Source: a phage. From it: a stretch of 64,000 nucleotides of DNA. Made by a program: the position numbers and the translations under genes. The notes under the pieces are model-generated. The model had not been told where the DNA came from. It saw only the letters and a list, made by a program, of their open reading frames with translations, and did not search any database. Positions 50,197 to 50,529 of the stretch are shown one piece after another (position 1 is the first letter of the stretch; every line of letters begins with the position of its first letter). Location: the NCBI GenBank assembly GCA_019385495.1, contig GCA_019385495.1_4102.1; one strand, given 5' to 3'.

Positions 50197-50529
50197 ATGC
50201 TAAATCTAAATATTCAAGGCAACGTTGATATCACTCCAGCAATCCAAGATGCTATTTACAATGAAGCAAAAAGTCTGGATAAGTACCGTACTTCTTCAGT
50301 ACTAGACATTGGTGTTCATGTTAAGAAAGAGCATAAAACTCAATATGCTGTAACTTTAACTGCTGGTAGTAAATCAGTAACTGCTGATGATGCTGATTTG
50401 TATAAAGCAATTGTTGAATCTTTTGATAAGATGGAAACTGTATTCAGTAAAGACAAAAGCATTAAATTACACCGCCGAAACCATCCAGAACACCCAGTTC
50501 TTGATGATTTGACAGAAAACGAAGAGTAA
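50197..50529 (+). CDS. ribosome hibernation promoting factor / RaiA (YfiA) family protein
   Basis: MLNLNIQGNVDITPAIQDAI and D-x-D-LY-x-AI pattern match HPF/RaiA as recalled. Confidence 0.75.
   Translation: MLNLNIQGNVDITPAIQDAIYNEAKSLDKYRTSSVLDIGVHVKKEHKTQYAVTLTAGSKSVTADDADLYKAIVESFDKMETVFSKDKSIKLHRRNHPEHPVLDDLTENEE

Follow-up and report, generated by a model that had tools for sequence, protein, structure and literature searches.

A RaiA-like protein of the HPF/RaiA family encoded by Asteriusvirus-type jumbo coliphages

Results

The DNA analyzed here, a stretch of 64,000 nucleotides from a phage (NCBI GenBank assembly GCA_019385495.1, contig GCA_019385495.1_4102.1), is referred to as the window. 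A gene on its plus strand encodes a 110-aa protein that is correctly assigned to the HPF/RaiA (Ribosomal_S30AE) family of ribosome hibernation factors. The protein is RaiA-like in architecture, with a single domain and a conserved C-terminal tail, and its gene belongs to an isolated phage clade with no recent capture from a host. On balance, and with modest confidence, we favor a role as a monomeric RaiA-like factor that would sit in the cleft between head and body of the host 30S subunit in vacant ribosomes, silencing or protecting them.

Over the 2 kb around the gene (49200-51200), identity was 98.7% with Escherichia phages vB_EcoM_G17 and Sharanji and 95.9% with 121Q, and by this comparison the window is from an Asteriusvirus, a jumbo coliphage myovirus of about 350 kb. 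An identical 110-aa protein is present in at least 11 GenBank phage records, including Sharanji, G17, slurp01 and UE-S1, under the name "S30EA ribosomal protein". The 121Q ortholog (YP_009102120.1, 83.6% identical) is listed in RefSeq as 'HPF/RaiA family ribosome-associated protein', phAPEC6 gp292 is annotated as 'ribosome-associated inhibitor A', and the PBECO4 protein appears in UniProt as 'Ribosomal subunit interface protein'. The identical protein WNN14706.1 was placed among the translation factors in the Sharanji genome paper, without experiments (PMC11895373), and in 2019 Mizuno et al. had described HPF homologs for both Cronobacter phage GAP32 (358.6 kb) and rV5-like phages (PMC6375957). 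The family identity of the gene was therefore already known from public annotation and from Mizuno et al., and the original prediction had been anticipated both in GenBank and in print. In literature searches, no functional study of a phage HPF later than 2019 was found, nor were transcriptomes or time-resolved proteomes for the genus Asteriusvirus. To the public annotation we add three points: the gene has not been copied recently from a host, the protein is built on the RaiA rather than the HPF plan, and the ribosome contacts kept or lost are listed residue by residue.

The phage protein has the sequence signature and fold of the HPF/RaiA family

The gene and the two parts of its product are located as follows.

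50197..50529, plus strand: coding sequence of the HPF/RaiA-family (Ribosomal_S30AE) protein, 110 aa, stop codon included; assigned from hidden Markov model (HMM) and PDB matches, fold and the ratio of nonsynonymous to synonymous divergence (dN/dS)
50197..50457, plus strand: codons 1-87, the structured part; from the AlphaFold2 predicted local distance difference test (pLDDT) and Foldseek against PDB
50458..50526, plus strand: codons 88-110, the conserved C-terminal tail SIKLHRRNHPEHPVLDDLTENEE, predicted to be disordered; from pLDDT below 50 and alignments

The original prediction had assigned the protein to the HPF/RaiA/YfiA family from the letters alone and had proposed a search against the S30AE family HMM. 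When that search was run, residues 5-87 matched Pfam PF02482 (Ribosomal_S30AE) over profile positions 2-84 of 88 with 41.0 bits (gathering threshold 23.7, E = 3.3e-10), and precomputed PF02482 matches were present in all full-length homologs. The D-x-Y-x-AI region singled out in the same prediction was located at D67-L-Y69-K-A71-I72. In alignments with E. coli RaiA and HPF its residues D67, Y69, A71 and I72, which mark the start of helix 2, were invariant, as were the core positions T13, A15 and L27. The first match in PHROGs was phrog_34864, which has no function assigned, followed by the S30EA family phrog_8990.

Comparison with solved structures gave the same assignment. The best phmmer match among PDB sequences was the Thermus thermophilus HPF 6gzx (E = 5e-7); B. 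subtilis HPF (5njt), E. coli HPF and protein Y, all ribosome-bound hibernation factors, were also matched, and a profile built from 13 phage homologs improved the E value to 7.5e-9 (9t0z). The AlphaFold2 model was of moderate confidence (mean pLDDT 75), with block means of 74-88 over residues 1-80 and 64 in the 81-90 block, and its secondary structure consisted of strands at 2-8, 36-44, 50-56 and 59-65 and helices at 14-30 and 68-86. All 38 of the Foldseek matches against PDB with E <= 1e-3 were HPF, RaiA/pY, PSRP1 or RafH structures, with a target-normalized template modeling (TM) score of up to 0.81.

Two other labels have been or could be attached to this protein, a dodecin-like small flavin- or ligand-binding protein and a sigma-54 modulator or sigma factor, and we regard either as extremely improbable. 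The Pfam Dodecin profile (PF07311) scored 19.5 bits (E = 0.0012), which is below its gathering threshold of 22.5 and covers residues 12-55 only, and no dodecin was found among the fold matches. In GenBank, the proteins of 121Q, UB and A4 go by the names 'putative sigma 54' or 'putative sigma factor'. The older designation 'sigma 54 modulation protein' goes back to the position of hpf beside rpoN, as seen in E. coli, and is not to be read as a functional assignment.

The C-terminal tail gives the protein a RaiA-like architecture

No second Pfam domain was detected in the protein even at E <= 10, including PF16321, and the C-terminal dimerization domain of long HPFs is therefore absent. Since this domain is missing, the long-HPF mechanism, in which 100S formation is self-driven, is excluded.

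The structured part is followed by a tail of 23 residues (88-110), predicted to be disordered, in which a basic Arg-Arg segment precedes an acidic end. R94, D104, E109 and E110 of the tail were invariant across the 13 homologs. In alignment with the RaiA tail, R93/R94 fell on RaiA R95/R96, and both proteins are acidic at the end; the charges of the core, of the end of helix 2 with the proximal tail, and of the distal tail were -3, +4 and -6 in the phage protein and -1, +4 and -5 in RaiA. An HMM built from the phage sequences only ran through RaiA tails (median end at profile position 103), and its best cellular scores, 55-63 bits, were obtained with RaiA-type proteins of Photobacterium. A [DN]-hydrophobic-x-[DE] docking motif common to the phage tails and RaiA was also considered; it was present in 11 of 93 RaiA tails versus 7.4 +/- 2.6 in shuffled tails and was set aside, so that only the charge layout stands. 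By these sequence comparisons the architecture of the protein is RaiA-like. Orthology to RaiA is not claimed, because the protein failed the PRK10324 equivalog test.

The core domain did not discriminate between RaiA and HPF, whether by NCBIfam scores, by the ranking of PDB matches with the profile or by the phage-only HMM. Two of these comparisons could be taken to suggest a different type of factor, a short-HPF-like cofactor that acts with host RMF to drive 100S dimers and stop translation, for instance at a late stage of infection and in concert with the lysozyme-like gene. The phage-only HMM scored the core of enterobacterial short HPFs as well as that of enterobacterial RaiA (medians 46.8 and 43.8 bits), and E. 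coli HPF ranked above RaiA in the PDB searches. In addition, the gene begins 17 nt downstream of the end of a lysozyme-like gene, with no terminator in between. Against such a cofactor, the phage protein continues beyond helix 2 into its RaiA-like tail, where short HPFs stop after about 5 residues, and the tail of RaiA is directed to the RMF site (10.1101/2025.10.07.680626). Moreover, in Salmonella phage Munch a terminator and an extra gene part the lysozyme gene from the ortholog, so the coupling to lysis is not conserved. We therefore consider this type of factor improbable.

Some of the putative ribosome-contact residues are retained

Cryo-EM of Gram-negative hibernating ribosomes identified shared basic contacts at K80, R83, K87 and K91, further contacts at K89 in HPF and at R95/R96/A97 and W30 in YfiA, and a YfiA (RaiA) tail that heads toward the RMF site (bioRxiv 10.1101/2025.10.07.680626). 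These contacts were mapped onto the phage protein by alignment with 89 RaiA-type and 52 enterobacterial HPF sequences. The positions retained were K78 (= K80), K85 (= K87), K87 (= HPF K89), K29, an aromatic residue at position 30 (= RaiA W30) and R93/R94. Three of the five positions in the helix-2 basic track (K80, R83, K87, K89, K91) were kept, with R83 replaced by Thr and K91 by Ile or Val. Thr occupies the same position in T. thermophilus HPF ('RLETQVKR'), whose ribosome-bound structure has been solved, and is therefore not disqualifying. Mutagenesis in S. aureus identified K27/R30 and K84/R87 as key basic residues (PMC4889938), and the equivalents of R30 and K84 are retained in the phage protein. 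Ribosome binding by the phage protein is thus plausible from its residues, and the host factors may bind more tightly or with different details.

The same residues bear on whether the S30AE fold has been repurposed, so that the protein would act on another RNA or protein in the infected cell and not on the ribosome. The clade is isolated, diverged and acidic and does not reach the NCBIfam equivalog cut-offs; of the four basic contacts common to E. coli HPF and RaiA, two are lost; and the HPF of phage rV5 did not bind ribosomes under high salt (PMC6375957). What has been retained, however, are the ribosome-contacting residues, namely K78, K85, K87, R93, R94 and the beginning of the helix (D-x-Y-x-A-I); Thr in place of R83 has its ribosome-bound precedent in Thermus HPF, and no alternative partner or domain was found. 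Repurposing therefore seems to us rather unlikely.

The gene is not a recent copy of a host gene

The original prediction described the gene as a phage copy of a host factor. Homology to HPF/RaiA was borne out, and recent capture was not: the protein was only 25% identical to E. coli RaiA and 28% identical to E. coli HPF (residues 2-87), its clade is isolated and its gene order is conserved. When 1.84 billion cluster representatives were searched exhaustively with phmmer, only 8 matches at E <= 1e-3 were obtained: two from its own clade, one RaiA-type protein of Photobacterium, one spurious match and four proteins of 103-107 aa whose tails are laid out in the same way. The Photobacterium protein, aligned over residues 6-105, was the best cellular match. 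The 103-107-aa group comes from Salmonella phages Munch, 7t3, SE_PL and PHA46 and Klebsiella phage fENko-Kae01, all of about 340-360 kb.

The gene order around the S30AE gene was kept in 121Q, Sharanji, phAPEC6 and Erwinia phage Hallingskeid: a lysozyme-like gene, the S30AE gene, several small open reading frames (ORFs), a CCA-adding tRNA nucleotidyltransferase, a Nudix protein, a glutaredoxin/thioredoxin and a macro domain. Munch has the same order, but with the extra gene and terminator after the lysozyme gene. This conserved synteny among related jumbo phages indicates that the S30AE gene is old in the jumbo-phage lineage. Taken with the search results, it suggests a phage gene in an isolated phage clade, without recent host capture.

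Other phages carry S30AE genes of different origin. The rV5-type HPF is about 44% identical to E. coli HPF and had no similarity to the window protein detectable by BLASTP, and it is an independent acquisition and lineage. A collection of 50,697 phage records was searched by tblastn with E. coli HPF, RaiA and RMF and with two phage proteins. S30AE genes turned up in 130 records for E. coli HPF, mostly rV5-like phages (Vequintavirinae), in 38 records (Asteriusvirus-type) for the window protein, and in 5 close Munch-type records and scattered others for a Munch-type query. With E. coli RMF as query, no RMF homolog was found in any of the records. The set found with E. coli HPF also includes some records labeled as Campylobacter phages and the Xanthomonas jumbo phage XaC1.

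Four Salmonella-propagated Asteriusviruses, SD-1_S14, SD-2_S15, SD-6_S16 and SD-15_S21 (310-326 kb), carry copies of the gene that are truncated or internally deleted. The copy in SD-1_S14 lies at 1499-1651 and that in SD-15_S21 at 1501-1725, the latter encoding 74 aa without residues 22-57; the adjacent lysozyme gene is also fragmented in both of these records, which were the two inspected. Such copies may stem from real gene loss or from poor assembly, and they were not taken as a sign that the gene is dispensable.

The gene is under purifying selection and alleles have probably been exchanged

Among the 13 homologs, which were 60-84% identical, 37 columns were invariant, tail included, and these comprise VHVKKEHKTQY, ADLYKAI, K78, K85, K87, R94 and the terminal EE. 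Compared with the 121Q allele, the gene gave dS = 0.55, dN = 0.08 and dN/dS = 0.15 (0.13-0.15 between alleles), which supports coding in the annotated frame. The gene is under purifying selection, neither relaxed nor positive.

The divergence of the gene from 121Q forms an island at 50197-50450, where the first 234 nt (codons 1-78) were only about 80% identical and the flanks were 98-100% identical (median 99.3% over 17.5 kb). All 18 amino-acid differences fell within residues 3-77, and the tail was unchanged. UE-S1 encodes an identical protein despite flanks that are only 89.6% identical. The pattern points to an old allele brought in by recombination and to allele exchange among Asteriusviruses.

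Similar islands relative to 121Q were observed elsewhere in the window. One lies at 55301-55600, in an ORF at 55212..55688 for a macro-domain (ADP-ribose-binding) protein, and others at 50951-51100, 41951-42250 and 46151-46300; the islands are 83-93% identical and the rest 99%.

A monomeric ribosome-silencing or ribosome-protecting role is favored

A role in controlling host translation or protecting ribosomes had been suggested in the original prediction. In the version favored here, binding to the ribosome, its location, the effect on 100S particles and the gain for the phage are all inferred. The protein would bind the host small subunit between head and body, overlapping the mRNA path and the positions of the A- and P-site tRNAs, by way of the helix-2 lysine track (K78, K85, K87) and R93 and R94 of the proximal tail. 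It would not itself pair ribosomes, because the long-HPF C-terminal domain is missing. Given the RaiA-like length and charge layout of the tail, the tail would probably run toward the RMF site and favor inert 70S monomers over 100S dimers of the RMF/HPF type. The most plausible benefit would be that vacant host ribosomes are preserved, during the long cycle of a jumbo phage or in starved hosts, with the decoding center and the 3' region of 16S rRNA occluded and thereby shielded from RNases or ribosome-directed suicide systems; idle translation could be damped as well. There is a precedent for protection, as E. coli RMF, HPF and RaiA block the access of YbeY and RNase R to 16S rRNA (PMC7913689).

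Several observations weigh against this role. The protein did not reach the cut-off of any of three NCBIfam models, TIGR00741 (HPF/YfiA; 36.3 bits, cut-off 40.9), PRK10324 (RaiA; 19.3 bits, cut-off 158) and PRK10470 (HPF; 23.2 bits, cut-off 125). It is acidic overall (pI 5.5), and the Asteriusvirus clade has lost R17 (to H, Q or N), K/R23 (to E), R83 (to Thr) and K91 (to Ile or Val), with K26 variable. The core domain scored no better against RaiA than against short HPFs or the N-terminal domains of long HPFs and, since the core does not discriminate, it is the tail that makes the assignment RaiA-like. Finally, under high salt the rV5 HPF did not co-purify with 70S or 100S particles and left the profiles unchanged (PMC6375957). 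As the rV5 protein belongs to an independent lineage, this failure is not directly transferable to the window protein.

Some of the same observations have been, or could be, read as anti-hibernation. Mizuno et al. suggested that phage HPFs might compete with host factors (PMC6375957); a weak and reversible occupant of the HPF/RaiA site, or a tail that blocks RMF, would keep ribosomes available for phage mRNAs, with the greatest effect in starved hosts. The loss of the basic contacts R17, K26, R83 and K91 fits weaker binding, the RaiA-like tail is present, and no RMF homolog was found among the 50,697 phage records, so that the phages are without a 100S-forming partner of their own. On the other hand, occupancy of the decoding center blocks translation however weak it is, so that the protein would have to be released by some mechanism. 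Strict conservation of the lysines in helix 2 and of the Arg-Arg pair also argues for real binding and not for decay. We judge competition of this kind unlikely.

The monomeric silencing or protecting factor that we favor could be taken one step further. In Asteriusvirus- and Munch-type phages the protein might serve as a ribosome shield, evolved by phages and long maintained in one lineage of ~350-kb jumbo phages, that occupies the decoding center of vacant ribosomes and protects 16S rRNA from host RNases or from ribosome- or tRNA-directed abortive-infection nucleases, with the tail keeping RMF off so that no 100S lock forms. This extension is speculative and we consider it doubtful. A counter-defense role would fit the neighbors with RNA and stress domains, the gene island imported by recombination and the island in the macro-domain gene.

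Local signals mark the ends of the gene

The ORF at 50197..50529 opens with ATG, and its translation, which begins MLNLNIQGNVDITPAIQDAI, is exactly that quoted in the original prediction. Three further elements were located at its ends.

50184..50193, plus strand: Shine-Dalgarno sequence AGGAAGGTGA, 3 nt before the ATG; read from the sequence
50538..50570, plus strand: intrinsic terminator with an 11-bp stem, a 5-nt loop and a T-rich tail; from folding and from the annotation of G17 and UE-S1
50509..50537, plus strand: sigma-70-type promoter TTGACA-17-TATACT within the 3' end of the ORF, 11/12 matches to consensus; putative function

That the gene has its own terminator, as had been claimed, was upheld by a hairpin and T-run 3' of the stop codon. 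The stem is formed by AAAGGGACAGA (50538-50548) and TCTGTCCCTTT (50554-50564) around the loop TTAAT, with the G+C core GGGACAGA/TCTGTCCC followed by TTTTCTTAT. The hairpin had a folding energy of -17.8 kcal/mol (z = -4.3), equalled by 0 of 200 shuffles, and a terminator is annotated at the same place in the GenBank records of the sister phages G17 and UE-S1. A consensus scanner reported the hairpin on the minus strand only, where A-T pairs lengthened the stem and absorbed the plus-strand T-run.

The promoter in the last codons of the HPF-like gene directly adjoins the terminator hairpin (50509-50564) and presumably serves the next transcription unit, whose gene starts at 50583. Its predicted start lies inside the 5' arm of the hairpin, so that transcripts begun there could not form the terminator; the arrangement could be a compact terminator/promoter overlap of two units.

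Genomic context and expression

Two features upstream of the gene are relevant to its expression.

49253..50179, plus strand: gene with a LysM and a phage-lysozyme domain (Phage_lysozyme 45 bits, LysM 22 bits); limits according to Sharanji gp426 and 121Q gp532
49092..49136, plus strand: candidate sigma-70-type promoters TTTACA-17-TAAAAT and TTGTAA-16-TATACT, the latter with a TG extended -10; putative function

The lysozyme-like and HPF-like genes are probably co-transcribed. The candidate promoters lie in the only sizeable gap upstream (49085-49252; 135-170 bp) and are weaker than the 11-12/12 promoters of the neighboring gaps, where perfect or near-perfect sigma-70 promoters are found together with hairpin terminators. 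The signals in the neighboring gaps would fit transcription by the host RNA polymerase. A promoter scan was rejected as evidence of timing, as consensus matches within 48500-52500 were not enriched (17 versus 20.9 in shuffles). The lysozyme ortholog of phAPEC6, Gp293, was not detected in virions, and the S30AE protein is absent from the 62 virion proteins listed for that phage (PMC7247149); the S30AE protein would therefore act inside the cell.

No tRNAs and no Rfam families were found in the window. Upstream of the lysozyme-like gene, 48674-49084 (plus strand) encodes a 2H-phosphoesterase-like protein (PF22547, 25.6 bits, just below the cut-off of 27), and 43299-43739 (plus strand) a DUF5856/ferritin-like protein, which the 121Q annotation calls 'starvation-inducible DNA-binding protein'. 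Downstream, on the plus strand, are the CCA-adding tRNA nucleotidyltransferase (52761-53873) and the Nudix hydrolase (53981-54382). Hallingskeid and Munch also have an RNA ligase a few kb upstream. The region may be an RNA-repair or translation-maintenance neighborhood, though many small ORFs of unknown function lie in between.

Three other segments of the window were recorded. A 208-aa ORF at 52129-52755 (plus strand), between a 40-aa ORF and the CCA-adding gene, is absent from 121Q, Sharanji and phAPEC6. It matched the C-terminal half of the HNH endonuclease family phrog_953 (profile positions 198-402 of 420, E = 2.5e-66), had no Pfam match and is likely a truncated or split homing endonuclease. 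An insertion of about 350 nt relative to 121Q at 44351-44800 contains an ORF (44412..44771, 119 aa) that belongs to phrog_10749, a family with no known function. The region at 42148-42837, of about 690 bp, has no coding sequence annotated in Sharanji. Within it are a promoter-like sequence, GGGACA-16-TATAAT, at 42149-42176, a direct repeat of 29 nt that is imperfect (42454-42482 and 42607-42635) and, at about 42675-42700, a terminator made up of a hairpin and a T-run. A 518-nt stretch of it folds with z = -3.5, equalled by 0 of 100 shuffles, and has no Rfam match; the region is a candidate phage non-coding RNA.

Discussion

Genes for ribosome-associated proteins in phages raise the question of how large phages manage the translation apparatus of the host. 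The clade described here is a reasonable experimental target, as it is old in the jumbo-phage lineage, under purifying selection, endowed with a RaiA-like tail and found in phages of E. coli K-12, a host for which ribosome biochemistry, cryo-EM and raiA, hpf and rmf mutants are at hand.

Among cellular proteins, E. coli RaiA (pY/YfiA) has the same fold and the same layout of a single domain with a tail of about 20 residues, an aligned Arg-Arg pair and an acidic end, and its K29, aromatic residue 30, K80 and K87 are retained in the phage protein. The phage protein differs in that it lacks R17, R23, K26, R83 and K91, is only 25% identical, scores 19.3 bits against the 158 of the RaiA model, has a beta2-beta3 hairpin shorter by 2-4 residues and is the product of a phage gene that adjoins a lysozyme-like gene. 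E. coli short HPF (YhbH) also shares the fold, with 28% identity over residues 2-87 and K80, K87 and K89 retained. It is, however, a protein of 95 aa that ends about 5 residues after helix 2, where the phage protein has its conserved 23-residue tail, and it makes 100S dimers with RMF, which was not found in the phage collection. The N-terminal domains of long HPFs (Thermus thermophilus 6gzx/2ywq; B. subtilis 5njt; 9t0z) were the best sequence matches among solved structures, and the helix-2 motif 'K/R-L/M-E-T', in which Thr stands where R83 would be, is also found in Thermus HPF. Long HPFs, of about 180-190 aa in total, have a C-terminal dimerization domain, in contrast to the 110-aa phage protein.

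Among phage proteins, those of 121Q (gp533), PBECO4 and phAPEC6 (gp292) are 83-84% identical to the window protein, and the copies in Sharanji (gp425) and G17 are indistinguishable from it. The orthologs of Hallingskeid (46% identical) and Munch (gp216, about 31-35%) retain both the tail layout and the neighborhood that runs from the lysozyme gene to the CCA-adding enzyme and the Nudix gene. The Cronobacter phage GAP32 protein K4F6Q6 has the same fold, with only 16% identity in structural alignment. Only one phage HPF, that of rV5-like phages (Vequintavirinae), has been studied by experiment. It too is an S30AE protein encoded by a phage, about 105 aa long and basic in its tail, but it has no BLASTP-detectable similarity to the protein described here.

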